Below the pieces are notes generated by a model. The model did not search any database. It worked only from the letters and a program-made list of their open reading frames with translations, and was not told the origin of the DNA. Of a stretch of 64,000 bases of DNA, positions 578 to 61,706 are shown in pieces. The translations under genes and the position numbers were made by a program. This DNA is from Bdellovibrionota bacterium (GTDB lineage Bacteria > Bdellovibrionota > UBA1018 > CAIPTA01 > JAALKR01), in the NCBI GenBank assembly GCA_965207455.1, contig CBDBMJ010000001.1, positions 672,001 through 736,000 on the forward strand, in the 5' to 3' direction. The first letter of the stretch is position 1; each line of letters starts with the position of its first letter.

Positions 578-1657
578 CTAAGTTCCTGTGGCCATACTTT
601 TTAACGGATTTAATTTTACAACTTCTGACCTATCCCAGTTTCTTGTTTTCCCTGACCAACGATTTGGGTTTTTTTGTTTTGCTCGCTCGTATACCGCTCG
701 TCTCTTAGCTAATATCTTAACATCTTCACCTCTCCTGCGACTCCCTGGAGTTACAAAATTTATACCACTATGAAAGTGCTCTTCATTATACCAAGAAATA
801 AATTCATCCATCCATTCCCTACATTCCTCAATAGATTCAAACGGTTTAAAGGGATAGCTTGGACAATATTTCAGTGTCCTAAACAAAGATTCTGAATAAG
901 GGTTGTCATCGCTGACTCTCGGTCTATTAAAGGATGGAATCACTCCAAGTCTCTGGAGTGTTGCAAGCATGGTAGCTCCCTTCATTGGTCCTCCATTGTC
1001 TGAATGAATAACAAGCGCTCCTTCCTCTATCTTTTCTTGCTTACATAAATTTGATATCATTTGACTTGAAACTCTATCATTTTGTTCTGAGCTAATATCA
1101 TAGCCAACGATACTGCGATCAAAGATATCCATCACTAGGTACAGGTAAAATTACACACCTTTTATATTAGTTTTTAAATATGTTATGTCCCAACTCCAAA
1201 CTTCATTAGGACCTGTGGATACAAGCTCTCGAGGATTATTAACCTTACTTCCCTGCTTTTGCTTACCTCTATGGACTAGCATTCCCTCTTCTTTTAGACA
1301 GCGGTAAAAAGTAGATTCACTGGCTATATACTTTCCCTCATCGGCTAATGCGGGTACGATCTGTGCTGGCGGCTTATCCTGGAACCTTTCACTGTTTGCT
1401 ATTTTAAGAACTCTTTCTTTCTCCTCATCGCTTAATTTATTTGCTGGAACATTCTTGGAATCCTTCCTCCTATCTCCAACAGAATCTTTCTTCCAACGTC
1501 TATAGGTTTTGGGATCTACTCCCACCTGTATGCATGCCTTAAAGAGGCATGCCCCATTAGAGACAGCCTCTTCAATTTTTTTTAAACAATCTTTTCTATC
1601 TGCTAGCTCTGTTCGTCTTCCTCGTTTTTTCCCCATATCAGTTCCATCTTTTTTTTT
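578..1657 (-). pseudogene. IS3-family transposase OrfB with in-frame premature stop
   Basis: ORFs 1151..1636 and 578..1135 share a frame: WSWDITYLKTNIKGV*FYLYLVMDIFDR. TAA at 1151-1153 lies between the first catalytic Asp (WDITY) and the second (HSDNG); YSESLF carries the Glu. Confidence 0.85.
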
Positions 1658-2073
1658 AGAACCAACAGGGCACTAGCTTCTGCAAGAGCCTTATCTTTAC
1701 GAAGAATTTCTTTTTCCAAAATATGAATTTTCTTTTTCAATTGACGTTTCTCGGAAGGATCCTCCCTTTCACAAAGCTCACGCCTCCAGTCATTTATATC
1801 TCGATTAAAAAGTCCGTGCTTACGCAAATAGGCACCTCTACTTTCTTCCTCTTTGAGTTCTGCAATCTGCTCAATTGCTCCAAGTTTTTGTTTTCTACTC
1901 CAGTATTTATTTCCTTTTTTCATACTAGGCTCTTTACCACATTCCCTTACCCATTTGGATAGGGTGGGCTGTGATATATCAACCTCACGGCTGAGAGCAT
2001 AAGCACTGGGACCACGAGGAGATAACATCTTCTGAACCATCGTTTTCTTTATTTCTTCTGAATATAGCTTCAT
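1603..2073 (-). CDS. IS3-family transposase OrfA
   Basis: N-terminal HTH (YSEEIK...SQPTLSKW) and C-terminal ALAEASALLVLKKK ending at a -1 frameshift motif (A9G; T-run 1649-1657 on +). Confidence 0.85.
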   Translation of the reverse strand: MKLYSEEIKKTMVQKMLSPRGPSAYALSREVDISQPTLSKWVRECGKEPSMKKGNKYWSRKQKLGAIEQIAELKEEESRGAYLRKHGLFNRDINDWRRELCEREDPSEKRQLKKKIHILEKEILRKDKALAEASALLVLKKKMELIWGKNEEDEQS

Positions 2074-2913: not shown

Positions 2914-3161
2914 ATTCTCTTAACAGACCGCTGTATTTTCACTTTCATTTAAAAGCCTAAATTTATAGGGGAAACAGCAATAAGATTATACGTCGTGTTA
3001 TGAAATTTCCTTTTACTGAGGTGTGAGTTTTTAGATTTGTCCTTACACAGAATCATTTTTTATTGACGCCCTAAATAGCGCTATGATAGGTTCGCAGCAT
3101 TAGATTTAGGGAAAACAGTGTCCTCCCAAATAAAATGGTGTTTTATAAAGGAGTAATAAAA

Positions 3162-4259
3162 ATGTTAAAAAAAGTATATGTACTTATAGTCGCAAGTTTT
3201 TTTATGATGAATATGAATGCCTGTAAAAACGATAGTAAACTGACTATGATGACCCAAAACCTATATTTGGGTGCTGATATTAGTAGGCTAATTAAAGGGG
3301 GGGAAGGGAATGATCCTGTCTCTATTTGGAGAACTGTCCAGTACACCCGATTCCAGGATAGGGCAGTGGCTTTAGCAAAAACTATGGCTCGCCACAAGCC
3401 TCATGTAATTGCTCTACAGGAAGTAAGCCACTATACAATTGCGCTTGCAAGTAATGGTTATGTATTAGTAGATTTATCCTTTCAAGATGTTTTGATGGGA
3501 GCGCTGGAAGCTCAAGGTCTTCATTATAGGGCTGTGGCACGATCTCCTGGAGTAGACAGAACATTTCCAGCTAGTCTGCCAGATGTTGGAGACGTAAATG
3601 TACGATATCAGGGTTACAATTTATTGCTTGTAGACCCGTCCATTGAGGTGAGCAATACAGTTGAGGGAGAATATAATGCTCAATTGTCCCTCCCCCTAGG
3701 AGATGGGACTGTTACGTTTACAAGAGGCTATACAGTGTCTGAGCTAAAAAAAGGGGGCGTTTCTTTTGCTGTGGCGAATACCCATTTAGAATTACATCCT
3801 AGTATTCAATTGGCACAAGCTGGGGAACTCATGGAGGTAGTGAAAGACCTAGGCACAGACACTTTTGTTATGGGAGATATTAATAGCGCAGCTCCAAACA
3901 TCGCTTCGGAATCTGAAAATACAAACACTGCCACCTATACTTCCTTTCTAGAGGGTGGTTTTCGGGATGCTTTTCTGGATGTAAATGCAGACTCTTTGGC
4001 TACAAGCACTTGTTGTTTTAGTGAAACTCTCGATGAAGAGAAAGGCGACTTGAGTGAAGGGCGCATTGACCATATTCTCTATCGAAGGGGAAATAACTCT
4101 GTGGTTACTAAGAGGCGAATGCGAGTATTTTTTACAGGAAATAAAAGTACTGATAAAACTCCTGGCAGTGATGAGTCACCATCCCTTTGGCCCTCAGATC
4201 ACTTAGGTGTGGTAATGGAGCTGAATTCTCAGAAAGCAAAGAGAACGCCAATTCGTTAA
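3162..4259 (+). CDS. exported endonuclease/exonuclease/phosphatase (EEP) family protein, possible lipoprotein
   Basis: Motifs MTQNL, ALQEV, NTHLE, GDINS, RIDHILY, SDHLGV. Start moved to ATG 3162, which follows an AAGGAG RBS. Confidence 0.85.
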   Translation: MLKKVYVLIVASFFMMNMNACKNDSKLTMMTQNLYLGADISRLIKGGEGNDPVSIWRTVQYTRFQDRAVALAKTMARHKPHVIALQEVSHYTIALASNGYVLVDLSFQDVLMGALEAQGLHYRAVARSPGVDRTFPASLPDVGDVNVRYQGYNLLLVDPSIEVSNTVEGEYNAQLSLPLGDGTVTFTRGYTVSELKKGGVSFAVANTHLELHPSIQLAQAGELMEVVKDLGTDTFVMGDINSAAPNIASESENTNTATYTSFLEGGFRDAFLDVNADSLATSTCCFSETLDEEKGDLSEGRIDHILYRRGNNSVVTKRRMRVFFTGNKSTDKTPGSDESPSLWPSDHLGVVMELNSQKAKRTPIR

Positions 4260-4416: not shown

Positions 4417-7400
4417 ATGTGGAAGAAAATAAAGCATAGACAGTTTTTCGTAGGTCTATTTCTATGCCTTCTTGTGCTTTCTTCTTTTTTTATCTTCTTT
4501 AGGTTTCAGGAAGATATTTCCCAAGAAAGGAATCTCGGTTCTTTTTTCAGTGGAGATCAAGAAGCTTTCGGCATTGAATTTTCTAATCAAAAAACTGATT
4601 TATTTATTCGAAATTTTTATTCCATTTTTTTAAAAAATTTTATTGAAGAGAATTTGCAGAGTTTATATTTAAAGGATTCTTTTTTTCACGCTTCAGATGT
4701 TTCCTATTGTATTCAAGATCAATATAAAAATTTTGAAACAGAGCCTATAGATAAAATTTGGAAAAAATGTTGGGGCATGCCCAATACTCTCGTAACTATA
4801 ATGGAACATAAGATGAAGTATTCATGCCAGTCTTTTCGTTGTACAATAGGAAGAGAGTTCCATCCTATTCCCGCATTCTTTAATTTTCATGAACTTCGTT
4901 TTCCAAAGTTTAAGCTTTCTGAAAATTTTGAAGTGTCTCATCTTGGAAATAATGTATTTGAAATGCTTACTTGTCTAGAGGATTTTGCCATAGAGGGGAA
5001 TATTACTCTTTCTTCTCTAAAAGAAGGTTTACCTTTACACCATAGCCCTAATTTGTTAGCCTCTTATAAAGACAGCCCGCCTATTTGTATCAAATTACAG
5101 CTTATAATAGAGCATAATAAAAACGGTAAATCTGAGATTAGAGTTAGTAATGCAACTGATATTACGTTTGAATCTGAAAATTTTTCTGTTAATATTTTGG
5201 ATACTGATAAGAAAGAATATTTTAATGAAGAATTATCACACTTAGGCACGTACTTTCTTAGAGAAAACCCTTTGCTGAAAAAAGCAAAATTAACATTATA
5301 CAGAGAGCTAATGGGTAATTATTTTAGCGATATAGATAAGTCAAAGTTAAATGAAAAAGCTCAAGTGCTTTTTATTAATGGTTTTAACTTTGAAAAAATA
5401 AAATCTATTGGAAAAGAAACTAGAATGGATGAGTTAATTGAGCACTCTTCAAATATATTATGGCGATATTTTTCAGAAAGTGCGGAAGAACCATTTTCGG
5501 TTCATTATAATCCATTTTATATTCGGATGTATGACCTATTGAGAGAAAATAAATTATGGGATGAGCTTGAGTTTAATATAAATTTTAATGATAAAGAATA
5601 CTCCAGATCCTACTTTAGTGCGGATAGAGGTACAATGCCATTTATTTTGAAAATGAAATTAATTGATTTTAATTTAAAAAAGAAAATACTTTATAAAGAA
5701 GAATTCAAGCCTATTTTATTAGATGCTATTCAAGATACATTATATTCTATTTTGGGTATTTCTTATGATGTTCAAATTCCAGAGAGGATACATTGGAAAA
5801 ATATTGATTTTGATAAATATAAATTCTTTAATGAAGCTGATTCTACAGATGAAAGCAGATATGACGATCAGATGAAGACCATAATCTCATTCTTTACTAC
5901 AGGAAATCTTTTAGCAAATGAACTGAATGAAATGGATAGGAGAGTTAAAGCATTTAATGTTTTGAATGCTGATAAGAAAGAATCTTCAGAGAGCCACAAA
6001 TCTTTAGATGAACTATTATCAAGCTTAGGCACATACTTTTTTAGAGAAAACCCTTTGTTGAAAAAAGCAAAATTAACATTATACGGAGAGCTAATGGGTA
6101 ATTATTTTAGCGGCATAGATAGCTCAAAGTTAAATGAAAAAGCTCAAGTACTTTTTGTTAATGGCTTTAACTTTGAAGAAATAAAGTCTGTTGGAAAAGA
6201 AACTAGAATGGATGAATTAATTGAGCACTCTTCAAATGTATTGTGGGAATACTTTTTAGAAAGCAAGGAAAAACCGTTTTCGATTCATTATAATCCATTT
6301 TATATTCGGATATATGACCTATTGAGAGAAAATAAATTATGGAATGAACTTGAGTTTAGCATGAATTTTAATAATAAAAAATATTTCAAATCTTACTTTA
6401 ATGAGAATAAAGACACAATGCCATTTATTTTAAAAATGAAATTAATTGACCTTAATTTAAAAAAGAAAACATTTTACAAAAAAGAATTCAAGCCTGTTTT
6501 ATTAGATGCTATTCAAGATGTATTATATTCTGTTTTGGGTATTTCTTATGATATTAAAATTCAAGAGAGGATGCTTTGGAAAGAGACTGATCTCGATAAA
6601 TATGAATTATTTAAAGGAGCTGATCTTGCCAGCCTTATGAATGAAAATAAATACGATGATCAGGGAAATATTATTATCTCATTCTTTATTAGAGGATATT
6701 ATTTGGCAAGTCAACTGAATGGAATGGATATAAGCAGATCATTACTTATTCAGTATACTTTATTTAGAGATAGTAAAATATTTAGAGATAGTAAGAATTT
6801 TACAAATTCCCCGGCTTTTGTGGATTGGTTAAAGAAAGTTCATTTAAACTATATTTTCCCTTTAGTTTTTAAGAATCTTAATAAAAAAATGGATAACCTT
6901 GATTTTTCTTTTTATATGAAAGGTGATGCCTCTGAGGATGACTCCAATGTAGAATCAGAATGTTTTTTTGAAGAAGAACCTCTTGCTTACAATTTTAAAT
7001 TGGTAGCGCCCAAGAATTCTTTACGGCAATATTTAAAAAAAATTCATGAAGAACGATTTATGGGAAAAACTTTTTTTATTAAAGAGTCAAAAAGTTCTGG
7101 AGATGGAACAAATATTGAGAATAAAATGATTTTATTAGAGGATAATAAGATTCATAAAGGAGATGGTGTGTTTGTTAAATTCCACAAACCCCTTAAGGTT
7201 TCTTTTGAAAAAAGAAAAAAAACAGTTGAATCTGAAAAATTTCTCCGAGTTTTAGGAGGCAAGCGAGACAAAAAACTTAAAAAACATGATTTCATAAAAA
7301 TAGATGCTCCTTTCCATTTTAAAAAAAAGACGAAGCATGGGTTTATGGAAAAATTTTTTAATCTGGCTTTTTCTACTGACTCTGGAGAATGTAGTGAACA

Positions 7401-7716
7401 GTTCCGGATACGATTGCAGGAGAACAAAAAAAATACCTCTGAAATTGCATTATCTGTCTTGCAGGACAGAGACTGTAGTTCTGTAGTTCAACAATTTTTT
7501 CTAAAAGCAGTTTTATCCTATTTTTTAAGTCCATTTATTCCCATTGTTGCTATACTTAACCAGTCATTTTCTTTAGACTATAAAGCCAGTTCAGGTATGG
7601 ATGATAGTTTTTCCATTGTGAGGTTATTCTTGAAAAAATATCGTATCGTGAATATGTGTGAATCTTCCAAAAAACTGGTATTTTTCATTGAGCTCAAGCC
7701 TTCGTCTTCACTCTGA
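4417..7716 (+). CDS. large membrane-anchored hypothetical protein with internal tandem duplication
   Basis: 1099-aa ORF with an N-terminal hydrophobic helix and two ~255-aa repeats; no family recognised. Confidence 0.8.
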   Translation: MWKKIKHRQFFVGLFLCLLVLSSFFIFFRFQEDISQERNLGSFFSGDQEAFGIEFSNQKTDLFIRNFYSIFLKNFIEENLQSLYLKDSFFHASDVSYCIQDQYKNFETEPIDKIWKKCWGMPNTLVTIMEHKMKYSCQSFRCTIGREFHPIPAFFNFHELRFPKFKLSENFEVSHLGNNVFEMLTCLEDFAIEGNITLSSLKEGLPLHHSPNLLASYKDSPPICIKLQLIIEHNKNGKSEIRVSNATDITFESENFSVNILDTDKKEYFNEELSHLGTYFLRENPLLKKAKLTLYRELMGNYFSDIDKSKLNEKAQVLFINGFNFEKIKSIGKETRMDELIEHSSNILWRYFSESAEEPFSVHYNPFYIRMYDLLRENKLWDELEFNINFNDKEYSRSYFSADRGTMPFILKMKLIDFNLKKKILYKEEFKPILLDAIQDTLYSILGISYDVQIPERIHWKNIDFDKYKFFNEADSTDESRYDDQMKTIISFFTTGNLLANELNEMDRRVKAFNVLNADKKESSESHKSLDELLSSLGTYFFRENPLLKKAKLTLYGELMGNYFSGIDSSKLNEKAQVLFVNGFNFEEIKSVGKETRMDELIEHSSNVLWEYFLESKEKPFSIHYNPFYIRIYDLLRENKLWNELEFSMNFNNKKYFKSYFNENKDTMPFILKMKLIDLNLKKKTFYKKEFKPVLLDAIQDVLYSVLGISYDIKIQERMLWKETDLDKYELFKGADLASLMNENKYDDQGNIIISFFIRGYYLASQLNGMDISRSLLIQYTLFRDSKIFRDSKNFTNSPAFVDWLKKVHLNYIFPLVFKNLNKKMDNLDFSFYMKGDASEDDSNVESECFFEEEPLAYNFKLVAPKNSLRQYLKKIHEERFMGKTFFIKESKSSGDGTNIENKMILLEDNKIHKGDGVFVKFHKPLKVSFEKRKKTVESEKFLRVLGGKRDKKLKKHDFIKIDAPFHFKKKTKHGFMEKFFNLAFSTDSGECSEQFRIRLQENKKNTSEIALSVLQDRDCSSVVQQFFLKAVLSYFLSPFIPIVAILNQSFSLDYKASSGMDDSFSIVRLFLKKYRIVNMCESSKKLVFFIELKPSSSL
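5191..6731 (+). repeat. intragenic tandem duplication (copies ~5191-5940 and ~5956-6731)
   Basis: LGTYF(L/F)RENPLLKKAKLTLY...GKETRMDELIEHSSN...HYNPFYIR...TMPFILKMKLID...LLDAIQD occurs twice, with obvious DNA-level similarity. Confidence 0.95.
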
Positions 7717-7895
7717 TCTTTTCTATGGTCTTTAGGAGAATGTGAGATGCTTGGAAACAGTGCGTCGCACCTTCCATTTTTTCTTTTTCTATTTAATGAT
7801 TTACTGGATTTTTACTTGTTGTATTACTAAATAAAAAATGTTGTACTATTTGTGCTTGTATAAATTTTCAAGAGAAGAGGGAGAATTCTTACATT

Positions 7896-8546
7896 ATGTT
7901 TGATACCGAAGAGACGCTAAGTACGTATAGAAAATTCAGAAAACATATATACACGCATGGCGTCGATATTTTTGGAGAGAGCATCTTCTTTTCCAGCAAA
8001 GAATATTTTTATCTAGGTTTTATAAACGAAAAAGAGAGTACAGAAGCAGAAAAAGAAGCCTTTGAAGATTGGCATACGTTTAATTGGATTTTTTCCCATA
8101 CCACAGCTAAAGGCAAACCAACGGCACCGAATCGTAAGAGAATTGCAGCAAATTTTTTAGAATGGCATGGGTCAAAAATTGCAGAAAGAGATCAACTGCT
8201 AATCCAGAAAAGCATGGACAGTGTACTAGCCTTCTATCAGGTTTTGAAAAAAGATGTTCAAGGGGAGCGAATTTACCTAAAGGATATGCTCCTAGGACAG
8301 GAACTTTGGACTTATTATCCCTTGGACCTGAATGTGCAGGAGGGCTGTTTTCTTTGGGCAAAGATTATTGAATGGAACGATAGCTCTCTGCTGCTCACAC
8401 ATGGTGATACCCTGCTCTCTTTAGAAGATGGAATTGACACGTTGAGAAGCTGGGCCTACTCCTCTTCAAAGTCTGTGGAAGGAGAAATGCGTGAGATTTA
8501 TTGGCTCTCTCGGATGGAAAATAAAAAAGTAATTCCCATGCGTTAA
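7896..8546 (+). CDS. hypothetical protein
   Basis: 216-aa ORF with a purine-rich upstream region; no family assigned. Confidence 0.65.
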   Translation: MFDTEETLSTYRKFRKHIYTHGVDIFGESIFFSSKEYFYLGFINEKESTEAEKEAFEDWHTFNWIFSHTTAKGKPTAPNRKRIAANFLEWHGSKIAERDQLLIQKSMDSVLAFYQVLKKDVQGERIYLKDMLLGQELWTYYPLDLNVQEGCFLWAKIIEWNDSSLLLTHGDTLLSLEDGIDTLRSWAYSSSKSVEGEMREIYWLSRMENKKVIPMR

Positions 8547-8587
8547 TTCAATTCCCTTGTCCCCCTTTTTTTCGTATACATAAACGT

Positions 8588-9355
8588 ATGAACTTCAATG
8601 GAAAGAATAAGGAGTATACAGCTGTTCTACTGGCCGCAGGCTATGGCTCGAGAATAGCAAGCCTAACGGATAAACCCAAATGCCTCCTTTCTTTAGGCAA
8701 AAAAACCCTTTTAGAAAGGCACCTAGACACCTGGAAGGACCTAGGAATCCAAAATGTTCATATTGTCCTAGGCTATAAAGCAAGCTCCATTGAACCTATC
8801 GCCAATAAATATACCCAGCACTTTCAAATCACCTATCTAGTGAACGAGGACTTTCGTAATTGTGGCAATACCTTTTCTTTATACTTGGGTATTAAGGGCG
8901 TCCAAGGACCATGCCTGATTTTTGATGCAGACCTTGCCTATGATCCCATCATCTTAGATGATTTTTTAAAAAATGGACCCAATAGTGAGATGGCAGTGGC
9001 TCCAGTAAGTATGGATAATATGGAAGCCACAAAAGCCCTAGTGGATGAAAAGAAACATATACGAGTGCTAGCAGATAAAAGACCCATCCAAGAAAGTGAA
9101 CTATTGAAATACCGCTTTATGGGAGAAGCAATTGGGATTTTAAAATTTTCAAGTAATGGAACATCTAACTTAAAAAAACATGCTAAAAGTTTTCTCTCCA
9201 TACCGAAAAATTTGAATTTAAACTGGGAATATTTGATGAACGAATATTTATTGAGTAATGATGTTGGTGCCCATATGACCCAAGAAGGAAACTGTATAGA
9301 GATTGATACTCCAGAGGATTTTAAAATGGCAAAATCCCTTTTTGGTTATAATTGA
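8588..9355 (+). CDS. phosphocholine/phosphonate cytidylyltransferase family (LicC/PntC-like)
   Basis: LLAAGYGSR...KPKCLL and C-terminal EIDTPED; first gene of the phosphonate cluster. Confidence 0.85.
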   Translation: MNFNGKNKEYTAVLLAAGYGSRIASLTDKPKCLLSLGKKTLLERHLDTWKDLGIQNVHIVLGYKASSIEPIANKYTQHFQITYLVNEDFRNCGNTFSLYLGIKGVQGPCLIFDADLAYDPIILDDFLKNGPNSEMAVAPVSMDNMEATKALVDEKKHIRVLADKRPIQESELLKYRFMGEAIGILKFSSNGTSNLKKHAKSFLSIPKNLNLNWEYLMNEYLLSNDVGAHMTQEGNCIEIDTPEDFKMAKSLFGYN

Positions 9356-9379
9356 AGACCTGACTTTGAAAGGAAAATA

Positions 9380-10261
9380 GTGTTTTCTTTAGCAGAATAC
9401 AAACGTAGCATACGACCATTTTATTTAGAAGAACCAATGGACTATTGTTTCTTTCGTCCTATTGCCTATATTATTGTAAAACTCACATGGAATCTTCCTT
9501 TAAAACCCGATCATTTTTCCATATGTTCTTTAATCGTGTCTATTCTATCAGCATATTTTCTGTCGACGGGCACGCCCAATGGATTTTTACTTGGAGGCCT
9601 AGGAATGCTTGCCTTTGGTGTCTGGGATTGCTGCGACGGAATGTTAGCGAGACTCAAAAATAACGGTTCGAAATATGGAGAATTTATCGACATGTTTGTG
9701 GATTTAATTTCCTCTGCTGCTGCTTATATTGGCCTATCCATAGGTCTTTACAATTCGACAACCCTCTCCCTTCCTCCATACTTGGCTATCTTTTCTGCCC
9801 TTTGCCTTTTGCTACACCTGAGCCGATACCAACACTATAAGAAACAGTACCTTTTCTATCTAAAGGGGGACCCCGAAGGCAGGGCTCAGGAAGTAGATAA
9901 ATATAAACAAGAGTATGAAAATCACTCCAAAGGAATTTTTGAAAAAATCCTTCTTCGTATGTTCCTTGTATATAACCGGATTCAACCGAAGCCTAGGAAG
10001 GACATGGAAACTGAAAAATACCTAAAATATAATAAAATCACTTTGCCACTATGGGGAGTGATTTCTGGAGCGTCCCATCTTTTTGTACTTTTTTGTACCC
10101 TGGTATTTCAAAGAATAGATTTATATTTTATGTACGCCCTTATCTTTGGAAATATTTGGTTTGTTATAATACTTTCTCTTCAAACACAAATAAATCGCCA
10201 TATCTCCATCAAGCCTTTGTCCTCTCAAAATAAACGAATAAAGGCTCTAGGGGAAAAGTAA
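9380..10261 (+). CDS. CDP-alcohol phosphatidyltransferase family protein
   Basis: Signature DCCDGMLAR...GEFIDMFVD; multiple TM helices. Confidence 0.9.
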   Translation: MFSLAEYKRSIRPFYLEEPMDYCFFRPIAYIIVKLTWNLPLKPDHFSICSLIVSILSAYFLSTGTPNGFLLGGLGMLAFGVWDCCDGMLARLKNNGSKYGEFIDMFVDLISSAAAYIGLSIGLYNSTTLSLPPYLAIFSALCLLLHLSRYQHYKKQYLFYLKGDPEGRAQEVDKYKQEYENHSKGIFEKILLRMFLVYNRIQPKPRKDMETEKYLKYNKITLPLWGVISGASHLFVLFCTLVFQRIDLYFMYALIFGNIWFVIILSLQTQINRHISIKPLSSQNKRIKALGEK

Positions 10262-10882
10262 ATGGCATTACTGATTGGTATCATCGGCGGCTTTGTTATG
10301 TCCATTCCGATTGGCCCCATCAATGTTTGGGTCATAAAAACCTGTGTTAAGAAAGGAATGAAAATTTCCATGGCTATCGCTCTAGGAGGATCCGTTATGG
10401 ATTTCATTTACTTTTTTATTGTTCTTTCTGGTCTATCTTGGCTTGAGTTTAGCGAAAGCCTTGCCTTTTACCTGAAACTCATCGGCGTTTGTTTTATTTT
10501 TTTACTGGGCCTAAGAGAACTAATGGCAAAAAATATTCTACTCCATGATCCTAAATACCGGGCAACACCAAAAGAATTACTAGGAGCCGTTCTACTAGGT
10601 GTAATTATTTATACCTCCAACCCCACTCTTTTATTCACAATGACCGCACTGGGAGCGTTCTTAAAAAGCCTAGAACTGTTTCCTTTTACCCAATGGAATA
10701 TACTCCTTATCTCCACAGGAGTAGGACTGGGAACATTCCTATGGTTTGTTGTGTTGACCCAAGTAATTCGCCGCTACCGAGAAGTAATCCTCAAGAAATA
10801 TTTAAGTTACTTTACAAAAATTAGTGGTATACTCATGATAACTTTGAGCGTCATTATGGCCACTCAATGGTTCCAAAACTAG
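10262..10882 (+). CDS. LysE family translocator
   Basis: SIPIGPIN N-terminal motif, SNP motif, about 6 hydrophobic helices. Confidence 0.85.
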   Translation: MALLIGIIGGFVMSIPIGPINVWVIKTCVKKGMKISMAIALGGSVMDFIYFFIVLSGLSWLEFSESLAFYLKLIGVCFIFLLGLRELMAKNILLHDPKYRATPKELLGAVLLGVIIYTSNPTLLFTMTALGAFLKSLELFPFTQWNILLISTGVGLGTFLWFVVLTQVIRRYREVILKKYLSYFTKISGILMITLSVIMATQWFQN

Positions 10883-10884
10883 GG

Positions 10885-10960
10885 GGGCGGTTGAAATGGG
10901 CGGTTGAAATGGGCGGCTAAAAATGGGGCCTAAAAAGGGGCACAAAAAGAGAGTCAAAAA
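10885..10960 (+). repeat. decaying 12-14 bp tandem repeat
   Basis: GGGCGGTTGAAAT x2, then GGGCGGCTAAAAAT, GGGGCCTAAAAA, GGGGCACAAAAA, GAGAGTCAAAAA. Confidence 0.75.
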
Positions 10961-10985
10961 GGCTTAAGCAAAAAGGAGACAAAAA

Positions 10986-12596
10986 ATGAAAAAAACAACG
11001 CGACTAAAAAGAATGCTAGAGAGCAAAGAGATGAGCTTTCTCATGGAATCCCATAACGGCCTATCAGCTAAGATTGTGGAAGAAGCTGGATTTTCTGGTA
11101 TCTGGGGCAGTGGACTGTCCATTAGCGCAGCCCTAGGTGTTCGAGATAATAACGAAGCATCCTGGACCCAAGTCTTAGAAGTCATGGAGTTTATGAGTGA
11201 TGCCACCTCTGTCCCTATCCTCCTAGATGGAGACACAGGCTATGGAAATTTTAATAATATGAGACGACTTGTGAAAAAACTGGAGCAACGGGAAATCGCC
11301 GGCGTTTGTATCGAGGACAAATTATTTCCAAAAACAAACAGCTTTTTAAGAGGAGAAAAACAACCCCTTGCAGATATAGATGAATTTTCTGGAAAAATTA
11401 AGGCAGGCTTAGATGCAAGGACGGACGAAGATTTTTGTATTGTAGCTAGAGTGGAAGCATTTATTGCAGGCTGGGGACTAGAAGAAGCTTTAAAGAGAGC
11501 GGAATCCTACCGAAAAGCTGGAGCTACGGCGATACTCATGCATAGTAAAAAAAATAATCCCAGTGAGATTTTTGCTTTTATGAAAGAGTGGGGAAATCGC
11601 TGCCCAGTAGTCATCGTACCCACAAAATACTATAGCACCCCCACAAAAGATTTTAAAGAGCATGGAATTTCTACTGTAATATGGGCCAATCATGTTCTAC
11701 GCACTTCCATTCAAGCTATGCAAAATACGGCGAAACAAATTTACAAAGAGCAAAGCTTGATGGGTGTGGAAGATCAAATCGTATCTGTAAAAGAAATTTT
11801 CCGCTTACAAGATGATAAAGAACTAGCCGACGCAGAGAAAAAGTACTTTCAACAGGACACGGAAAGCAACGCTATTATATTGGCCGCTAGTCAGGGAAAG
11901 GAGCTAGGAGAGCTAACCATAGACAAGCCAAAGGCCCTACTTCATGTAAATGGCGTACCTATTCTTCAGCAAGCCATCGATAAAATCAGGAATTTTGGAA
12001 TAAATAATATCTCCGTAGTTCGTGGTTATAAAAAGGAATCTTTTCCCGACTTGGGATGTGAGTATATTGATAATGATCATTTTAGTGAAACGGGAGAATT
12101 ATATTCTTTATTTTTAGCAAAAGATAAAATTAAAGAGAATATTTTAATTGGCTATGGAGATATCGCTTTTAAAAGCTATGTTTTAAATCTTTTAGAAGAT
12201 AGTAAGTCGGACATCTGTATCTTAGTGGATAGCAATATTCAGGACAGGAATAAAGGTTGTGTGGAAGATTATGTAATTTGTAGTCAAGAAAATAAAAAAC
12301 AGTTTGGATTAGACTCTTCAAAACTATTGAATATTTCCCTATCTGCTAAAGGAGACCTTTCCTTCGAGCCCCATGGAGAATGGATTGGAATTTTAAAGGC
12401 TAACCCCAAAGGGTCAAAAAACATTCGAACCGCATTGGATCACTTATCCAAGAAAGCTGATTTTAATGAACTGAAGATGTCTAATTTATTTCAAGAGCTC
12501 ATTTCTAAGGATGTGGAGATAGGAGTAGTTTATATCGAAGGTGGATGGATGGATGTGGACAGCTATAAGGATTTTGAAAAAATTCAAGTTTTTTAA
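10986..12596 (+). CDS. aepX: phosphoenolpyruvate mutase fused to a C-terminal nucleotidyltransferase domain
   Basis: PepM signature EDKxxxxxNS ([11 protein letters not shown]), LDGDTGYG. C-terminal domain ILAASQG...KPKALL...GYGDI...WMDVDS. Confidence 0.95.
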
Positions 12597-12619
12597 GAAC
12601 CATTAGTGAGGACGTAATT

Positions 12620-13780
12620 ATGGACGCTAACATTTTTTTAGATAAGTGTAGAGAACATGGATTTCATCTTTTCACAGGCACACCCTGTTCCTACTTAAAA
12701 CCATTTATCAATCAAGTGATTGACGATCCTAGCTTAGAATTTGTGGGTACCACAAATGAGGGAGATGCTGTAGCCCTTGCCACAGGAGCTTGGCTCGGCG
12801 GGCGACGTTCCGTTGTTATGTTTCAAAATTCTGGTTTAGGCAATGCCGTAAACCCATTGACCTCCCTTAGCCAAATAGTGAAAGCACCTTTTTTGGGAAT
12901 TGTTACGTTAAGGGGAGAGCCTGGCGGTCCTAAGGACGAGCCTCAACACAAATTAATGGGTTCTATCACAACCGATCTACTGAGCTTGATGGAAATTCCT
13001 TGGTCCTATTTTCCCCAAGAAAGCTCTGAAGTAACAAAAGCTTTTTCCCATGCAGAAAAAATGATGGAGGAAAATAAGACACCATTCTTTTTTGTAATGA
13101 AAAAGGGAAGCGTGGACAGCTACGAACTACAATCTTCTCTCAAAGAATATATAACAAAAGAATACAACGCTAGAGTAAATAAAAAACGTACCGGTAAAAT
13201 AGAATTTACTCGAACACAAGCACTAACAACCATTAAAGAAACATTGGGAGATAAATCTGTATATATTGCCACAACGGGAAAGACGGGAAGAGAACTTTTC
13301 ACTTTGGGAGATACGGAAAATCAATTGTATATGGTGGGGTCCATGGGATGCGCACTTCCCCTGGGATTAGGAATCACCACAACGGAATATAAGAATCCTG
13401 TGTGCGTGATAGATGGTGATGGAGCCATTTTAATGAGAATGGGCAATATGGCTTTGGCAGGGCAGATGAAACCAAAAAATCTACTCCATATCGTATTAGA
13501 CAACGGCATCCACGATTCCACAGGAGGACAAAGAACATTTTCAGAAACAATAGATTTCTGTGAAGTGGCCCTTCACTGTGGCTACGATTCCTCTTGGGAA
13601 CTGGACTCTTTGGATGCCCTGGAATCCACACTTCGAACTGTTATACAGAAAAACAATGAAAGCGGCCTACACTTTATACGTTTCTTTATTCGACCAGGAT
13701 CCCCTGCCCAATTAGCTAGACCCACAGTGCAACCTCTGGATGTTGCCATGCGATTAAAAAAGTATATAAATTTAGGGTGA
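12620..13780 (+). CDS. aepY: phosphonopyruvate decarboxylase
   Basis: FTGTPCSYLK, NEGDAVA, QNSGLGNAVNPL, DEPQH, TPP motif DGDGA...DN. Confidence 0.93.
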   Translation: MDANIFLDKCREHGFHLFTGTPCSYLKPFINQVIDDPSLEFVGTTNEGDAVALATGAWLGGRRSVVMFQNSGLGNAVNPLTSLSQIVKAPFLGIVTLRGEPGGPKDEPQHKLMGSITTDLLSLMEIPWSYFPQESSEVTKAFSHAEKMMEENKTPFFFVMKKGSVDSYELQSSLKEYITKEYNARVNKKRTGKIEFTRTQALTTIKETLGDKSVYIATTGKTGRELFTLGDTENQLYMVGSMGCALPLGLGITTTEYKNPVCVIDGDGAILMRMGNMALAGQMKPKNLLHIVLDNGIHDSTGGQRTFSETIDFCEVALHCGYDSSWELDSLDALESTLRTVIQKNNESGLHFIRFFIRPGSPAQLARPTVQPLDVAMRLKKYINLG

Positions 13781-13783
13781 GAG

Positions 13784-14923
13784 ATGCAAAAAGAAACAAT
13801 AACAAAAGAAATACAAAGAAATATTTTACTGAATCCGGGACCCGCAACAACTTCTGCTCAAGTGAAGTCTTCGTTAGTGGTGGAAGATATTTGTCCACGA
13901 GAACAAGAATTTGGCTTACTTTTAGATGATATACGAAAAAAATTGCTTTTAGTTGCAAACGGAGAAGCAGAGTATGAAGCAATTCTATTGGGTTCTTCTG
14001 GTACGGGAGCCATGGAATCTTGCCTACATTCTTGTTTGGATCAAGATGACAACAAGAAAATTCTCATCCTAGAAAACGGTGCTTATGGGCATAGAATGAA
14101 TAAAATTTGCAAATCCTTAGCAATTAAAGCCGATATGTTATCTTTTGGCTATGATGGCCCCATTGATTTGCAAAAAGTGAAGGAGCATTTACAAAAGAAG
14201 AAATATTCTGTAATGGCTTTTATCCACCATGAAACCACCACAGGAATGATAAATCCGTTAGAGGATTTGAATAGAATAGCAAAAAAATTTAATGTAGCAG
14301 TGATGGTGGATGCCATGTCCTCTTATGGAGGAATCCCCATTGACTTAGAAAAAACTGACGTGGATTATCTTATTTCTTCATCTAATAAATGCATACAGGG
14401 TATGGCTGGGCTGGGGATAGTTTTGGCTAAGAAAAAAGAATTGGAGAAAATAAAAAACTATAAAAATAGGAGTTTTTATTTTAATTTGTACAATAACTTT
14501 TTAAATCAGAAAGAAACAAAGCAATTTTTGTTCACACCTCCCGTACAGATTGTTTATTCCTTAAATAGTGCTTTGGATGAGTTCTTTGCTGAGGGAGGGA
14601 TTTCTGCTCGCTGGGAACGCTATTCTTGCCTGTATAAAGATATGTTTCAAGGGATGGTCCAAATGGGCTTTGCCCCACTTTTACCCGAGTCTTATCATTC
14701 TAAAATATTAACAACTTTTTTAGAACCTAAATGTCCTAACTATAATTTTGATTCAATGCATGATTTTTTGTATAAAAAAGGAATCACAATTTACCCAGGA
14801 AAAATTGACAGTAGGGGAACGTTTAGGATTTCTAACCTAGGTGACTTATCTCAAGAAGACATTGCCTATTTCCTGTCGACCGTGAGGGAGTACTTAAATT
14901 TCCATAAAATAAAGTTTTCATAA
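13784..14923 (+). CDS. 2-aminoethylphosphonate aminotransferase (AepZ/PhnW family)
   Basis: LLNPGP, HHETTTG, VDAMSSYGG, SSNKCIQG (PLP Lys), FTPPVQ, IYPGK. Confidence 0.9.
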   Translation: MQKETITKEIQRNILLNPGPATTSAQVKSSLVVEDICPREQEFGLLLDDIRKKLLLVANGEAEYEAILLGSSGTGAMESCLHSCLDQDDNKKILILENGAYGHRMNKICKSLAIKADMLSFGYDGPIDLQKVKEHLQKKKYSVMAFIHHETTTGMINPLEDLNRIAKKFNVAVMVDAMSSYGGIPIDLEKTDVDYLISSSNKCIQGMAGLGIVLAKKKELEKIKNYKNRSFYFNLYNNFLNQKETKQFLFTPPVQIVYSLNSALDEFFAEGGISARWERYSCLYKDMFQGMVQMGFAPLLPESYHSKILTTFLEPKCPNYNFDSMHDFLYKKGITIYPGKIDSRGTFRISNLGDLSQEDIAYFLSTVREYLNFHKIKFS

Positions 14924-14925
14924 CG

Positions 14926-16065
14926 ATGAAATACTTAATTTCAATTAGTCTGTTTCTCTTTTCTTTTCAGCTTTTTGCTGAAGAGATTAAAATCTTTCAA
15001 ATAAACTACCCCACCAAAGGAGTGTTTGTTGATTACTATATTGACAAAGAAAATTGTGATTTTAAGCCCCAAACATTGAGAGTAAAAATAAATAATGAAA
15101 AACCGAGTTTATTGGCAGATTTTTACTATGGATTTACTTTGGTTTCTGAAAAGAAAAATGAGCTGGTTTTTTATTTGAATTCAGCTAAAAATATACAATT
15201 TATTTATAGAAAAATAAATAGCTGTGCGTTTAGCTTATTTGCAAAAGTAGATGATAGGGAAAGGGAATTGAAAGGGATTTACCTAGAGTATTATAATAGA
15301 TTGTATTTCCCCACATTAAAGTCCATTAATCTTGATTTTTCTAATGGAGAAACACTGGCTTTAGAACCTCAAGATGCTGAGGGATACCTTCCATTTTATG
15401 AGCTCTATTTTGGTGTTGGCTCTATTATTAATACAGATATTAGGGGAGATAACCAGAAGTTTATCCATGGAGGAGGAGTAAATATGGAACCCATCCCTGC
15501 CGTGTTTGTCCGCTACGGTCCATTTTTTTTAAATCATACTGGTTTGGGTTCGCTTTTTTTAAAATGGAATAAGCTTCTTGTTCTTGGGATTATACTAAGA
15601 GATGGGGAGCCTTACGAGTCAAAGAATAAACATATTCGAGAAAGAACAAATGCAAATTTTTTTGGACTTATGGTGGAATTTGATTTTTTAAATGTACAAT
15701 ATATTAAAGATATTTTTTTCGATCATGGTGCGGTTTTTAAAGCATCAATAGCCCCAACATTTCACCCCAACGCCCGTTGGACGATTAAGCCCGTATTTTC
15801 TGTTCATCACTGGAATGAAAAATATATAAATTATTATTTTGGAGTAAATGAAAGGGAAGCTTTGGCCACAGGTAAATCAAGATATAAACCCAGGCACAGT
15901 TATCAATATGCTCTTATGGTGGAAAATTATTTAAAGTATAAAGAATGGCAATTTATCACTTCCATTGGAATGAAATCCTATGGAAAAGAAGTATCCCAAT
16001 CTCCCATATCAGAAACAGATAAAGAACTTAAACTTGTTCTGGGATTTTTATATAAAATACTATAA
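14926..16065 (+). CDS. exported two-domain protein with C-terminal MipA/OmpV-like beta-barrel
   Basis: Signal peptide; YINYYFGV...EA and SPI motifs typical of MipA/OmpV; ends LGFLYKIL; extra ~130-aa N-terminal domain. Confidence 0.7.
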   Translation: MKYLISISLFLFSFQLFAEEIKIFQINYPTKGVFVDYYIDKENCDFKPQTLRVKINNEKPSLLADFYYGFTLVSEKKNELVFYLNSAKNIQFIYRKINSCAFSLFAKVDDRERELKGIYLEYYNRLYFPTLKSINLDFSNGETLALEPQDAEGYLPFYELYFGVGSIINTDIRGDNQKFIHGGGVNMEPIPAVFVRYGPFFLNHTGLGSLFLKWNKLLVLGIILRDGEPYESKNKHIRERTNANFFGLMVEFDFLNVQYIKDIFFDHGAVFKASIAPTFHPNARWTIKPVFSVHHWNEKYINYYFGVNEREALATGKSRYKPRHSYQYALMVENYLKYKEWQFITSIGMKSYGKEVSQSPISETDKELKLVLGFLYKIL

Positions 16066-16089
16066 TGGAATCTATCCAGGCATGGGCAT

Positions 16090-17301
16090 CTATGGATAGA
16101 GGAGATATGGAGCCTGAGTCTCCACCCATATTGCTTCATCTGACTTTAATTTTTTATCTAAATCACCATATTCACTTTGGGGATCATCTACCCATTTCCT
16201 AAGAAAATCACAGCCACTGATAATATCAATGGGTAGGTGTTTTTTTTCATATTCATAAGGAGGGTCGATCCATAGATTATTTTTATGGTTTTCCATGATT
16301 TTTAAACTTTTTAATACGGCAGCAATGAAACGATAGGGGCGAAACTTTTCAGATTCGTAGAAATGATTGTCGATGAAAATCTGAAATCCTTTGCAATGCT
16401 TACCTGTGAATTTATCGAAAGTAGGTTTAAAGGCAATGGGAAGCAGGGAAAATCCCTTTAATACTTCAGGAAAGTTTTTCTCTAGGGTGGTGGTAAGAGC
16501 GTGATTTATAGTAGGAGAACCCAGTATTTCCAATGGTCGAACAGTGCCTCGTCCTTCCGATAAATGAGTACCCTCTAGCAAAACTGTACCCGGATACATT
16601 TGAGCTGTGAATTTATTTCCTATATTGGGACTGGGTAGTACCCAAGATCGATCTTGGGGCCATGGATAATCTGCGGGCTGGTAATGATTGAGTTTTATAA
16701 TTTTTAAGTCCACATCGATTTTTTTATGAGCCTTATACCACAGAGCTGCTTCTCCCATGGTAAAACCATGGCGCATGGGCATGGGAGCTATACCCACAAA
16801 GCTGGTATAATCCATATTTAAAAGAGAACCTTCAATAGGCCTGCCCGCCGGGTTGGGGCGATCAAAAATCAAAAATTCTTTTTGAAACCTGGCACAGTCC
16901 TCTAAAAGATAAAACAGAGTGGTGAGAAAAGTGTATACTCTAGTGCCCACGTCCTGGAGGTCATAGATTAAAACATCAAAGGAGGAGGCCATCTCTGGAC
17001 TGAGTCTTCGCTGTTTTCCGTATAGACTAAAGGATGGAATGTTATATTGGGAGTCCACAAAGCTATTACTTTCTATCATGTTCGCCTGTTGCTCACCGTG
17101 GATGCCATGTTGTGGGCCAAAAGTGGCAGATAAGGGTAGATTATTTTGAAAAAAGAGGCTCACGGTGGGGCATAGATCTTGATTGACTGAAGCTGTATTG
17201 GCCACTAATGCTAGTCTTTTCCCCTTTAATTTTTTTTTATGGGTAGAGTGGGGAGAGAAAAATTCATCCACGCCAAATTGAGTCTCTGTATGTGTTCCCA
17301 T
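16090..17301 (-). CDS. exo-beta-N-acetylmuramidase NamZ (DUF1343) family
   Basis: FGPQHG, SLYG, DLQDVGTRVYT, DRPNP, RHGFTMGE, PSPN, SEGRGT. Start at ATG 17301 preferred. Confidence 0.88.
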   Translation of the reverse strand: MGTHTETQFGVDEFFSPHSTHKKKLKGKRLALVANTASVNQDLCPTVSLFFQNNLPLSATFGPQHGIHGEQQANMIESNSFVDSQYNIPSFSLYGKQRRLSPEMASSFDVLIYDLQDVGTRVYTFLTTLFYLLEDCARFQKEFLIFDRPNPAGRPIEGSLLNMDYTSFVGIAPMPMRHGFTMGEAALWYKAHKKIDVDLKIIKLNHYQPADYPWPQDRSWVLPSPNIGNKFTAQMYPGTVLLEGTHLSEGRGTVRPLEILGSPTINHALTTTLEKNFPEVLKGFSLLPIAFKPTFDKFTGKHCKGFQIFIDNHFYESEKFRPYRFIAAVLKSLKIMENHKNNLWIDPPYEYEKKHLPIDIISGCDFLRKWVDDPQSEYGDLDKKLKSDEAIWVETQAPYLLYP

Positions 17302-17381
17302 ATCCAATAGTATAGCAAAGCCACATAGTAAAGGAAATAAGGCTATTGCTTGTAAGGGATAAATCAAGTAGTTTAGCTATC

Positions 17382-17978
17382 ATGAACCGTAAGAATCCTC
17401 TCTCTTGGGCAAGGATGGGTTATGATTGGGTGCTTACTTGCTCTACTCGTCCCTATGCTACATTTGCTCTTTGTGCTGTTTCTTTTTTAGAGTCGATTAT
17501 TTTTCCCCTTCCTCCAGATATTTTTTTATTGGTTATGGGGGGGAATGCTCCCCGTAAGGCCCTATACTTTGCTTTTTTGGCAGCTTTATTTTCTGTTTTA
17601 GGCGCTGTATGTGGATATTTATTAGGTTTGGGGGCTTGGGGGTTTTTACAGGATTTTTTCCTCACTTGGGTTATTTCTCCAGAGTTTTTTGATACGGTGA
17701 AGGGCTTGTACCAAGAGAATACTTTTTGGACAGTCTTTGCGGGAGCATTCACGCCCATTCCTTTTAAAATTTTCACAGTATTGGGTGGAGTCTTTGGAGT
17801 TCCTTTTTCCCCTTTTTTATTGGCGTGTATATCGGGTCGATTCCTACGTTTTATGTGTATCGGGACTTTATTGTATTTTTATGGAAGTAGGGGACGTACT
17901 TTGGTGGAGAAGCACTTTAACTTGTTCACGATCATTTTTGTAATTATTCTATTTTTAGGATTTTGGGGAATAGCTTAG
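17382..17978 (+). CDS. DedA/YqaA (VTT domain) membrane protein
   Basis: SFLESIIFPLPPD, FTPIPFKIFT, GRFLRF. Confidence 0.88.
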   Translation: MNRKNPLSWARMGYDWVLTCSTRPYATFALCAVSFLESIIFPLPPDIFLLVMGGNAPRKALYFAFLAALFSVLGAVCGYLLGLGAWGFLQDFFLTWVISPEFFDTVKGLYQENTFWTVFAGAFTPIPFKIFTVLGGVFGVPFSPFLLACISGRFLRFMCIGTLLYFYGSRGRTLVEKHFNLFTIIFVIILFLGFWGIA

Positions 17979-34797: not shown

Positions 34798-34798
34798 A

Positions 34799-36073: not shown

Positions 36074-36078
36074 TTCTA

Positions 36079-37920: not shown

Positions 37921-37948
37921 TTTCCCTTCCTTGGACATTGCTTTTTAT

Positions 37949-38371: not shown

Positions 38372-38389
38372 ATTTATTTTCCTTTATTT

Positions 38390-39607: not shown

Positions 39608-39608
39608 A

Positions 39609-43776: not shown

Positions 43777-43781
43777 ACTCC

Positions 43782-61666: not shown

Positions 61667-61678
61667 GCATACCCCTAT

Positions 61679-61706
61679 ATTAGTGATAATTAAACTTATC
61701 ACCAAT
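61679..61706. other. near-palindromic 11-6-11 tyrosine-recombinase-type site
   Basis: ATTAGTGATAA-TTAAAC-TTATCACCAAT; arms 10/11 complementary; 12 bp upstream of the recombinase ATG. Confidence 0.7.

Follow-up and report, generated by a model that had tools for sequence, protein, structure and literature searches.

Gene clusters predicted to direct phosphonolipid synthesis are common in bacterial genomes, and the portions of the literature on which we draw here report that none of the large predicted groups has yielded an isolated product and that the transfer of the phosphonate to a lipid has no characterised enzyme. Li and Horsman 2022 (PMC8942020, citing Yu et al. 2013) describe 'Burkholderiales_CDP-OH' or 'Group 1 phosphonolipid' neighbourhoods of the gene for phosphoenolpyruvate (PEP) mutase (Ppm, or PepM), which contain a fusion of Ppm with the nucleotidyltransferase PntC, phosphonopyruvate decarboxylase (Ppd), 2-aminoethylphosphonate (AEP) aminotransferase (AEPT), a second PntC, an oxygenase and two phospholipid genes, and whose product, in that account, has never been isolated or characterised. 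The same source links a neighbourhood of Bacteriovorax stolpii (GCF 761), in which Ppm is fused to a PF12804 domain, to a 1-hydroxy-AEP sphingophosphonolipid, and B. stolpii is described as making a sphingophosphonolipid (PMC8942020, PMC6148460). Rice et al. 2019 (PMC6697681) report that about 60% of Ppm enzymes carry a fusion partner, which in nearly every case is a nucleotidyltransferase domain, and that PntC enzymes make the cytidine monophosphate (CMP)-activated form, CMP-AEP. We have analysed a 64,000-nucleotide stretch of DNA (the window) from a Bdellovibrionota bacterium (GCA_965207455.1, contig CBDBMJ010000001.1, positions 672,001 to 736,000), which carries a seven-gene AEP cluster at window positions 8588-16065 (Table 1). 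The locus is an oxygenase-less member of this catalogued kind of cluster, new to its lineage among the genomes sampled, and we lean towards the reading that it makes AEP, likely activates it as CMP-AEP and likely transfers it to ceramide to give a sphingophosphonolipid. Given the account of Li and Horsman 2022 (PMC8942020), as far as it is drawn on here, this type of cluster and the lipid that it probably makes in Bacteriovorax were already in print; what is new here is a gene order shared by 16 loci, the absence of the oxygenase from the window, the sphingolipid contexts of related genes across several phyla, the ceramide genes on contig 3 of the window's genome and the class-wide absence of the transferase.

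Set against these described systems, the window resembles GCF 761, by its text description, in having Ppm fused to a PF12804 nucleotidyltransferase together with Ppd and AEPT. It also has most of what is described for the Group 1 core, namely the Ppm-PntC fusion, Ppd, AEPT, a second PntC and one CDP-alcohol-type transferase, but lacks the alpha-ketoglutarate/Fe(II) oxygenase and the second phospholipid gene, in place of which it has LysE and MipA genes. The 80 best-matching loci for this transferase include none from Burkholderia. Compared with the Bacteriovoracaceae-type loci that were found, the window lacks the TauD/FrbJ-like oxygenase gene that lies upstream in all 16 of them and has an additional MipA-like gene. 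It differs further from the Bacteriovorax group in belonging to another class of the same phylum and in having no M13 peptidase gene between Ppd and AEPT; in the Bacteriovorax-group clusters this metallopeptidase gene (L018:14389-16365, L041:15954-17957, L092:3164-5137) has no obvious link to phosphonate chemistry.

The proteins of the window were assigned through Pfam and NCBIfam profile scans with curated cut-offs, and PepM, Ppd and AEPT all score above those of the corresponding equivalog models. Each step from PEP to AEP thus has its gene, as had been proposed in an initial annotation made from the sequence of this DNA; the seven co-oriented, tightly spaced genes named there agree exactly, in coordinates and families, with the open reading frames (ORFs) analysed here, which are separated in order by gaps of 24, 0, 103, 23, 3 and 2 bases. 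The PepM fusion divides into a mutase (residues 1 to ~290) and a LicC-like nucleotidyltransferase (residues ~295-536). The motif EDKxxxxxNS, which is described as setting mutases apart from other enzymes of the isocitrate lyase family (PMC6697681), is present in the window's PepM and in all 14 of the relatives examined. When compared with solved structures, the mutase domain (10986-11870) matches the PEP mutase of Mytilus edulis (1M1B) at 469.7 bits over 289 residues with most positions identical, the next solved bacterial mutase being far below at 245.5 bits. Molluscs are rich in ceramide-AEP, and the animal and Bacteriovoracaceae-type PEP mutase genes may share a recent origin. Ppd carries both the TPP_enzyme_N and TPP_enzyme_C domains, and AEPT, whose score against the catabolic PhnW model TIGR02326 does not reach the cut-off (335.8 vs 400.8 bits), is predicted to work in the biosynthetic direction here.

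Two nucleotidyltransferases are available for activation of AEP, one encoded by a stand-alone gene three genes from ppm and the other fused to PepM, and they resemble PntC, as described in PMC6697681, in lying in a ppm cluster. PntC (Tde1415, 6PD1/6PD2) and the phosphocholine cytidylyltransferase LicC (1JYK) are the best solved matches of both domains, at low identity. For the stand-alone enzyme these are LicC (1jyk, E 9.9e-11) and the AEP cytidylyltransferase Tde1415 (6pd1, E 3e-7); it has the canonical glycine-rich motif LLAAGYGSR and, at the position of Glu104 in Tde-PntC (residue roles as described in PMC6697681), an Asp as in LicC. The fused domain matches LicC at 7.3e-15 and differs in this motif, with LAASQGKEL in place of the LAAGLGTRL of LicC, such that S(Q/R)G.(E/D) stands where the PntC/LicC type has GxGTR; the variant LAAS(R/Q)G.(E/D)(L/I) is kept in the fused domains of relatives. 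We predict that the stand-alone enzyme makes CMP-AEP from cytidine triphosphate (CTP) and AEP, whilst the fused domain may also make CMP-AEP or may act on another phosphonate.

The transfer step would fall to the CDP-alcohol phosphotransferase (the transferase hereafter). Its motif, D83xxD86G87xxA90R91...G100xxxD104xxxD108, is complete with respect to the superfamily signature D(x)2DG(x)2AR(x)8G(x)3D(x)3D, and none of its eight residues varies across the 12 sequences aligned. The AlphaFold model (pLDDT 89.1) is consistent with this family assignment, the top 29 fold matches listed all being CDP-alcohol transferases with AF2299 (4o6m) first. This protein, of the AF2299/IPCT-DIPPS type of Archaeoglobus fulgidus, is the best match by sequence (E 5.4e-6) and by fold (E 5.9e-5, TM 0.55), at 15-17% identity, and it shares with the window the logic of a cytidylyltransferase feeding a membrane transferase, but its acceptor is the soluble inositol phosphate and the window transferase has an extra conserved C-terminal half (~150-275) and another gene context; scores against NF041135 (IPCT/DIPPS, cut-off 580 bits) are 50.1 bits for the nucleotidyltransferase and 19.3 bits for the transferase, so that neither counts as a member of that family. 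Fused forms occur in the window's subfamily too, with three representative proteins (P0120, P0148, P0154) joining nucleotidyltransferase and transferase domains, and the separate genes adjoin in the window and in most relatives. Given this adjacency, the fused forms and the logic of AF2299/IPCT-DIPPS, the donor would be a small CMP-activated head group and not CDP-diacylglycerol. The predicted head-group transfer is the same chemistry as that of the Kennedy-type enzymes CHPT1/CEPT1, though similarity to CHPT1 is weak (E 6.5e-4) and the window's donor would be a phosphonate. A precedent for a ceramide acceptor in this superfamily would be the CDP-ethanolamine:ceramide phosphotransferase of Drosophila. 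The activation and transfer steps foreseen in the initial annotation are therefore both provided with candidates, in the form of two LicC/PntC-like nucleotidyltransferases and a putative transferase with an intact motif.

A word-indexed protein search returned only 20 relatives of the transferase, the closest non-self one being 46-48% identical, and an exhaustive search of 1.84 billion representatives returned 55 at E <=1e-30 and 337 at E <=1e-10. The relatives carried no names. By these counts the transferase clade is a small subfamily within a very large superfamily. The window's genome encodes only three CDP-alcohol transferases, of which the other two are probably PgsA and PssA.

The gene neighbourhoods of these relatives bear most directly on the acceptor. 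In species-representative genomes 409 stretches matched the search pattern and 367 encoded a relative; of these, the best 80 loci were retained together with flanks of up to 10 kb on either side (L-numbers denote fetched loci and G000 the window's genome) and were compared by tblastn with the window proteins and then with sphingolipid proteins. In 16 of the 80 loci a nucleotidyltransferase, a CDP-alcohol transferase, LysE and the PepM fusion again follow one another in this order, and in 13 of the 16 Ppd and AEPT come next, the contigs of the remaining three ending first. Such recurrence argues that the arrangement is not due to chance. These 16 loci (type A: L007-L012, L014-L020, L034, L041, L056), most of which are labelled Bacteriovoracaceae or Bacteriovorax, have the order TauD, nucleotidyltransferase, transferase, LysE, PepM fusion, Ppd, AEPT. 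In type B (n=11), found in Neomarinimicrobiota, other bacteria and one Bacteriovoracaceae metagenome-assembled genome, the transferase lies between a GNAT-type gene of ~390 aa and an Epimerase-family reductase, with a PAP2_3 gene in five loci and a serine palmitoyltransferase (SPT) homologue within 8 kb in four. Type C (n=31; Bacteroidota, Ignavibacteriota, Krumholzibacteriota, Fibrobacterota and Calditrichota) is a triad of a HisC/CobD-like pyridoxal phosphate (PLP) enzyme, the transferase and a nucleotidyltransferase (e.g. L066:8903-11606, L037, L049, L059), which is suggestive of a Kennedy-type route to an amino-alcohol-phosphate head group. Four Bacteroidales loci of this type extend the series to SPT, two GNAT genes, reductase, HisC-like enzyme, transferase, nucleotidyltransferase and LysE, and the SPT of these clusters scores 701.7 bits against NF047600, above its cut-off of 640. 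The other loci have no clear context, five of them (Aminicenantes, Acidobacteriota) having PepM at some distance. Across all 80, a GNAT gene was found in 13, an SPT homologue in eight and an SDR reductase in 12, with at least one of these in 15.

Two arrangements join the AEP genes and the sphingolipid genes more closely. The AEP cluster of L041 holds, between the transferase and LysE, an intact gene of 335 aa that is 76% identical to the desaturase gene of L013, the latter encoding FA_desaturase and Lipid_DES (sphingolipid delta-4 desaturase) domains. In the genome G001, the AEP cluster reads TauD, nucleotidyltransferase, LysE, PepM fusion, Ppd, M13 peptidase, AEPT, with precisely the transferase missing, and it is flanked, as in L018, by ABC and DUF2141 genes; the only transferase homologue of G001 is that of L013, located between a GNAT acyltransferase gene and the desaturase gene. 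In a tree of 70 rows (IQ-TREE, LG+G4, quick search, SH-aLRT), from which 11 of 81 sequences were left out as having no ORF of 240-360 aa over the match, the PepM-linked transferases and L013 form one clade (SH-aLRT 98), in which L013 pairs with L041 as its sister; the adjoining clade is that of type B (support 87). Taken together, the two arrangements and the tree indicate that a transferase of the AEP clade can reside either with AEP genes or with ceramide genes, and the desaturase of L041 and the relocation in G001 point to what would be a direct sphingolipid link.

In the window's genome (2.38 Mb, three contigs, 94.7% complete), the search for a serine palmitoyltransferase that the initial annotation had called for did yield a candidate. 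The genome encodes three alpha-oxoamine synthases, one a Kbl (TIGR01822, 614.9 bits), one BioF-like and one SPT-like; the best solved match of the last is the Sphingobacterium SPT at 411.9 bits, compared with 317.7 bits or less for BioF/Kbl enzymes. Directly after the SPT-like gene, on contig 3, comes a GNAT-type gene whose 397-aa product shares 26-35% identity with its GNAT counterparts in the clusters described above; it had no family match in the profile scans, and in a protein atlas it lies among GNAT acetyltransferase clusters of Myxococcota, Planctomycetota and Bacteroidota at 0.98. An Epimerase-family (SDR) reductase gene lies 8 kb further on, its product sharing 31-37% identity with reductases from SPT clusters of other genomes. 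Judged by position, by family and by the account of the Caulobacter enzymes in PMC11087976, where an acyltransferase, bCerS, and a reductase, CerR, take part in the bacterial ceramide pathway, these two genes would encode bCerS and CerR.

The distribution of these genes was examined in a sample of 201 genomes of the phylum, G000 included, with thresholds of E <=1e-20 for the transferase and E <=1e-15 for the GNAT gene. The transferase was found in nine of the 201 genomes and the GNAT gene in 106. Family f20 accounts for most transferases (7 of 35 genomes, with the GNAT gene in 23) and family f17 for one (1 of 9, with the GNAT gene in four). In the window's own class the GNAT gene is nearly universal, being present in all three sampled genomes of the same order and in 31 of the 32 from the rest of the class, and the transferase is absent from every one of the same 35 genomes. 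It is this absence that suggests lateral acquisition of the cassette, and the case for it is one of distribution, since mapping of an insertion site through the flanking NamZ and HtpG genes gave no matches in the three same-order genomes. We infer that the ceramide backbone would be an old, vertical trait of the window's lineage, and that the AEP cassette would have come laterally from a Bacteriovoracaceae-like donor, without the oxygenase.

The pathway that we envisage would begin with conversion of PEP to phosphonopyruvate by the PepM domain, followed by decarboxylation to phosphonoacetaldehyde by Ppd and transamination to AEP. The stand-alone nucleotidyltransferase would then combine AEP and CTP to give CMP-AEP, from which the transferase would move the phosphonyl-AEP group onto the C1 hydroxyl of (dihydro)ceramide or of its 3-keto precursor, with release of CMP; the SPT, GNAT acyltransferase and SDR reductase of contig 3 would supply the ceramide. 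Ceramide, or possibly the 3-keto precursor, is proposed as the acceptor on the basis of the relatives' gene contexts and the published Bacteriovorax lipid. A product of this kind would have a head group whose carbon-phosphorus (C-P) bond resists phosphatases and phospholipases, which is of interest for predatory bacteria, with membranes exposed to prey and to their own hydrolases, and also for marine phosphonate cycling.

A broader proposal, to which we give about even chances, is that the clade is the missing bacterial sphingolipid head-group synthase, a Kennedy-type enzyme that would transfer a CMP-activated amino-alcohol phosphate or phosphonate to ceramide and would be served by an exchangeable supply module, the window representing a lateral cassette in a ceramide-making lineage. 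In Bacteriovoracaceae and the window's genome this module would be PepM, Ppd and AEPT, yielding AEP; in Bacteroidota, Ignavibacteriota, Krumholzibacteriota, Fibrobacterota and others it would be the HisC/CobD-like PLP enzyme, the product of which we would guess to be phosphoethanolamine or a similar phospho-amino-alcohol. The bacterial sphingolipid texts searched describe synthesis of the ceramide backbone and name no CDP-alcohol-type enzyme for phosphoethanolamine-like head groups, and the openly accessible full-text literature, as distinct from subscription journals, yielded no characterised bacterial phosphonolipid synthase or CDP-alcohol-type ceramide head-group transferase. Being repeatedly wired into sphingolipid clusters with interchangeable head-group supply, the transferase clade is a concrete candidate for this step, which is unassigned in the searchable literature. 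The TauD-less window, the genome with the relocated transferase and the HisC-type clusters provide natural contrasts in this regard. A partial parallel is offered by the unconfirmed inositol-lipid cluster of Bacteroides vulgatus, which, likened here by its description in Heaver et al. 2022 (PMC9246714), pairs a nucleotidyltransferase with a CDP-alcohol transferase for a lipid head group in a sphingolipid-producing host, but adjoins an inositol-phosphate synthase and a HAD hydrolase where the window's relatives adjoin a HisC/CobD-like PLP enzyme or PepM.

Several observations weigh against a ceramide acceptor. NF047600 is the top family of the SPT-like enzyme, but the score of 508.6 bits falls short of the 640-bit cut-off. 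For the GNAT gene, the assignment draws on its position, on weak Acetyltransf_1 matches in relatives and on protein-atlas neighbours, and although a GNAT gene accompanies the transferase in all nine transferase-bearing genomes of the phylum sample, these counts involve related genomes and are not independent. The presumed ceramide genes lie on contig 3, not on the window's contig, and none was found in the 32 kb upstream of the window, so the description of the locus as self-contained in the initial annotation does not hold as far as the acceptor is concerned. Among solved proteins, those nearest to the transferase act on soluble or diacylglycerol-type partners. Moreover, in the flanking DNA examined, no sphingolipid gene was found at 15 of the 16 syntenic AEP loci, at 27 of the 31 HisC-type loci or at the loci of unclear type, and the PAP2_3 gene adjoining five relatives would also fit a two-step route through a glycerolipid.

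In a rival reading AEP would instead be transferred from CMP-AEP to diacylglycerol, a Kennedy-type reaction, with diacylglyceryl-AEP as either the end product or the donor for a further transfer to ceramide. When the CDP-alcohol donor is soluble, enzymes of this superfamily classically take diacylglycerol as acceptor, the weak solved matches of the window's enzyme include cholinephosphotransferases (8ul9, E 6.5e-4), and the scarcity of sphingolipid genes around the syntenic loci suits a glycerolipid product. The PAP2_3 protein could pass the head group from glycerolipid to ceramide, in a manner similar to that proposed for the B. vulgatus cluster in the sections of Heaver et al. (PMC9246714) used here. 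No PAP2_3 match was found in the window's genome at 94.7% completeness, which also speaks against a sphingomyelin-synthase-like route there, and a glycerolipid product does not readily account for the desaturase within the L041 cluster, for the G001 transferase having moved beside ceramide genes or for the reported Bacteriovorax phosphonolipid being a sphingolipid (PMC8942020, PMC6148460, by their accounts of it). We consider a glycerophosphonolipid unlikely, although it is the strongest of the alternatives, above all in view of the five relatives that adjoin a PAP2_3 gene.

A sugar, polyol phosphate or cell-surface glycan could also receive the head group, in the way that DIPP synthase uses inositol phosphate, leading to envelope decoration or a solute. 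AF2299, of the IPCT-DIPPS type, is after all the closest solved relative by both sequence and fold, NF041135 matches the nucleotidyltransferase (2e-13) and the transferase (4.4e-4), far under its cut-off, and most of the AEP clusters studied are thought to decorate glycans, according to the parts of Rice et al. consulted (PMC6697681). Family scans of the window found no glycosyltransferase, methyltransferase or hydroxylase/oxygenase in or beside the cluster, as the initial annotation had noted for the cluster itself in arguing for a lipid rather than a glycan or an antibiotic, and no LicD-type transferase or polysaccharide gene either. A lipid product would fit this gene content and, more strongly, the sphingolipid neighbourhoods of the relatives, whose neighbours are lipid and not glycan genes, and we regard a non-lipid acceptor as quite improbable. 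Another lipid such as a hopanoid would find some favour in the weak match of the reductases beside relatives to HpnA (92-125 bits against a cut-off of 367.65), but is more improbable still, given that no squalene-hopene cyclase domain was found in the window's genome (94.7% complete) and that the neighbours seen are SPT, GNAT and sphingolipid desaturase genes.

Returning to the proposed ceramide-AEP, the absence of the oxygenase bears on the nature of its head group. All 16 type A loci have a TauD-family gene of ~300 aa directly upstream of the cluster, and the best solved relative of this cluster-type TauD is the phosphonate hydroxylase FrbJ. Its place in the window is occupied by a 216-aa ORF, which we considered as a decayed TauD and rejected, there being no credible alignment to the TauD proteins of L007 and L009 and no Pfam or NCBIfam match; the protein atlas gave a DUF7986 lead only, at 0.94. 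The only TauD-family gene of the genome, 240 kb from the cluster, was likewise rejected as a stand-in hydroxylase, its product being 23% identical to the cluster type and PvcB-like (306.3 bits to PDB 3EAT), which suggests that it may belong to an isonitrile-type natural-product pathway. As the window has no TauD/FrbJ-like oxygenase, we predict an unmodified AEP head group here, in contrast to 1-hydroxy-AEP.

The roles of the two remaining genes of the cluster are less clear, and the export functions that had been proposed for LysE and the outer-membrane protein find no support beyond adjacency. The start codon of LysE comes directly after the stop codon of the transferase, and LysE lies between the transferase and PepM in all 16 type A loci and after the nucleotidyltransferase in the four Bacteroidales loci. 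Given that in G001 LysE stays with the AEP genes, we would guess that what it moves is a small solute such as AEP or something related, and not a lipid. The MipA-like protein has a hydrophobic N-terminus and an N-terminal region of ~160 aa without a family match. Homologues occur near the cluster only in L007 and L009, at other positions and orientations, and in the window the gene is probably co-transcribed with the cluster.

Table 1. Positions of the AEP cluster genes and of other features in the window and genome (C1 and C3, contigs 1 and 3; all other positions refer to the window).
Feature	Position	Strand	Remarks
216-aa ORF	7896..8546	+	41 bases 5' of cluster; cluster membership doubtful
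Stand-alone LicC/PntC-like nucleotidyltransferase, 255 aa	8588..9355	+	NTP_transf_3 46.6 bits (cut-off 27)
CDP-alcohol phosphotransferase, 293 aa, GTG start	9380..10261	+	CDP-OH_P_transf (PF01066) 38.9 bits (cut-off 22)
LysE-family membrane protein, 206 aa	10262..10882	+	PF01810 72.7 bits (cut-off 25.6)
PEP mutase-nucleotidyltransferase fusion	10986..12596	+	PEP_mutase 208.7 bits; TIGR02320 399.4 bits (cut-off 319.55); NTP_transf_3 residues 296-416
Phosphonopyruvate decarboxylase (Ppd), 386 aa, thiamine-diphosphate enzyme	12620..13780	+	TIGR03297 396.2 bits (cut-off 312.5)
AEP aminotransferase (AEPT), 379 aa, PLP enzyme	13784..14923	+	TIGR03301 387.5 bits (cut-off 360.8); Aminotran_5
MipA/OmpV-like outer-membrane protein, 379 aa	14926..16065	+	PF06629 (MipA) 81.6 bits (cut-off 24.2), residues 163-377
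SPT-like alpha-oxoamine synthase	C3:127022-128218		
GNAT-type protein (candidate bCerS)	C3:128173-129366		
Epimerase-family (SDR) reductase (candidate CerR)	C3:137307-138293		
PvcB-like TauD-family protein	C1:441434-442270		
IS-type transposase gene fragments	578-2073		rve, HTH_32, HTH_Tnp_1
Exo_endo_phos protein	3135-4259		
1099-aa ORF	4417-7716		27-28% G+C (genome 40%)
VTT/DedA-family membrane proteins (two)	17346-17978; 49712-50320		
Type II secretion/type IV pilus-like cluster	31542-44858	-	secretin, T2SSE ATPase, T2SSF, pseudopilins, PilM-like
Phosphatidylserine decarboxylase	47262-48158		
Phage-type integrase	60569-61714		

The flanks of the cluster contain a number of further features (Table 1). 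Just 5' of it lies a long ORF of 1099 aa, low in G+C compared with the genome and with no Pfam or NCBIfam match, and beyond this and the 216-aa ORF are fragments of insertion sequence (IS)-type transposase genes; a phage-type integrase is found toward the opposite end of the window, and together the fragments and the integrase are possible marks of mobile DNA around the region. Scans of 7500-17500 were uninformative, with 41 promoter-like sites against 30.1 +/- 7.1 in shuffles and six terminator-like sites against 9.1 +/- 3.2. An Exo_endo_phos gene in the window was considered as a sphingomyelinase and rejected, since no solved relative was found at E <=0.01. A different gene of this family lies directly 3' of the AEP cluster in L009, from a Bacteriovoracaceae metagenome-assembled genome (L009:13090-13908), and its product, which is weakly like sphingomyelinases (beta-hemolysin E 6.5e-7, SMPD2 E 2.7e-6), may release the phosphonolipid head group. 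The next gene downstream of the window's cluster is a convergent NamZ gene, the end of which is overlapped by one of two genes for VTT/DedA-family membrane proteins; DedA proteins are lipid-flipping candidates in other bacteria. Further along, the window also contains a long minus-strand cluster resembling type II secretion and type IV pilus systems, and a phosphatidylserine decarboxylase gene.

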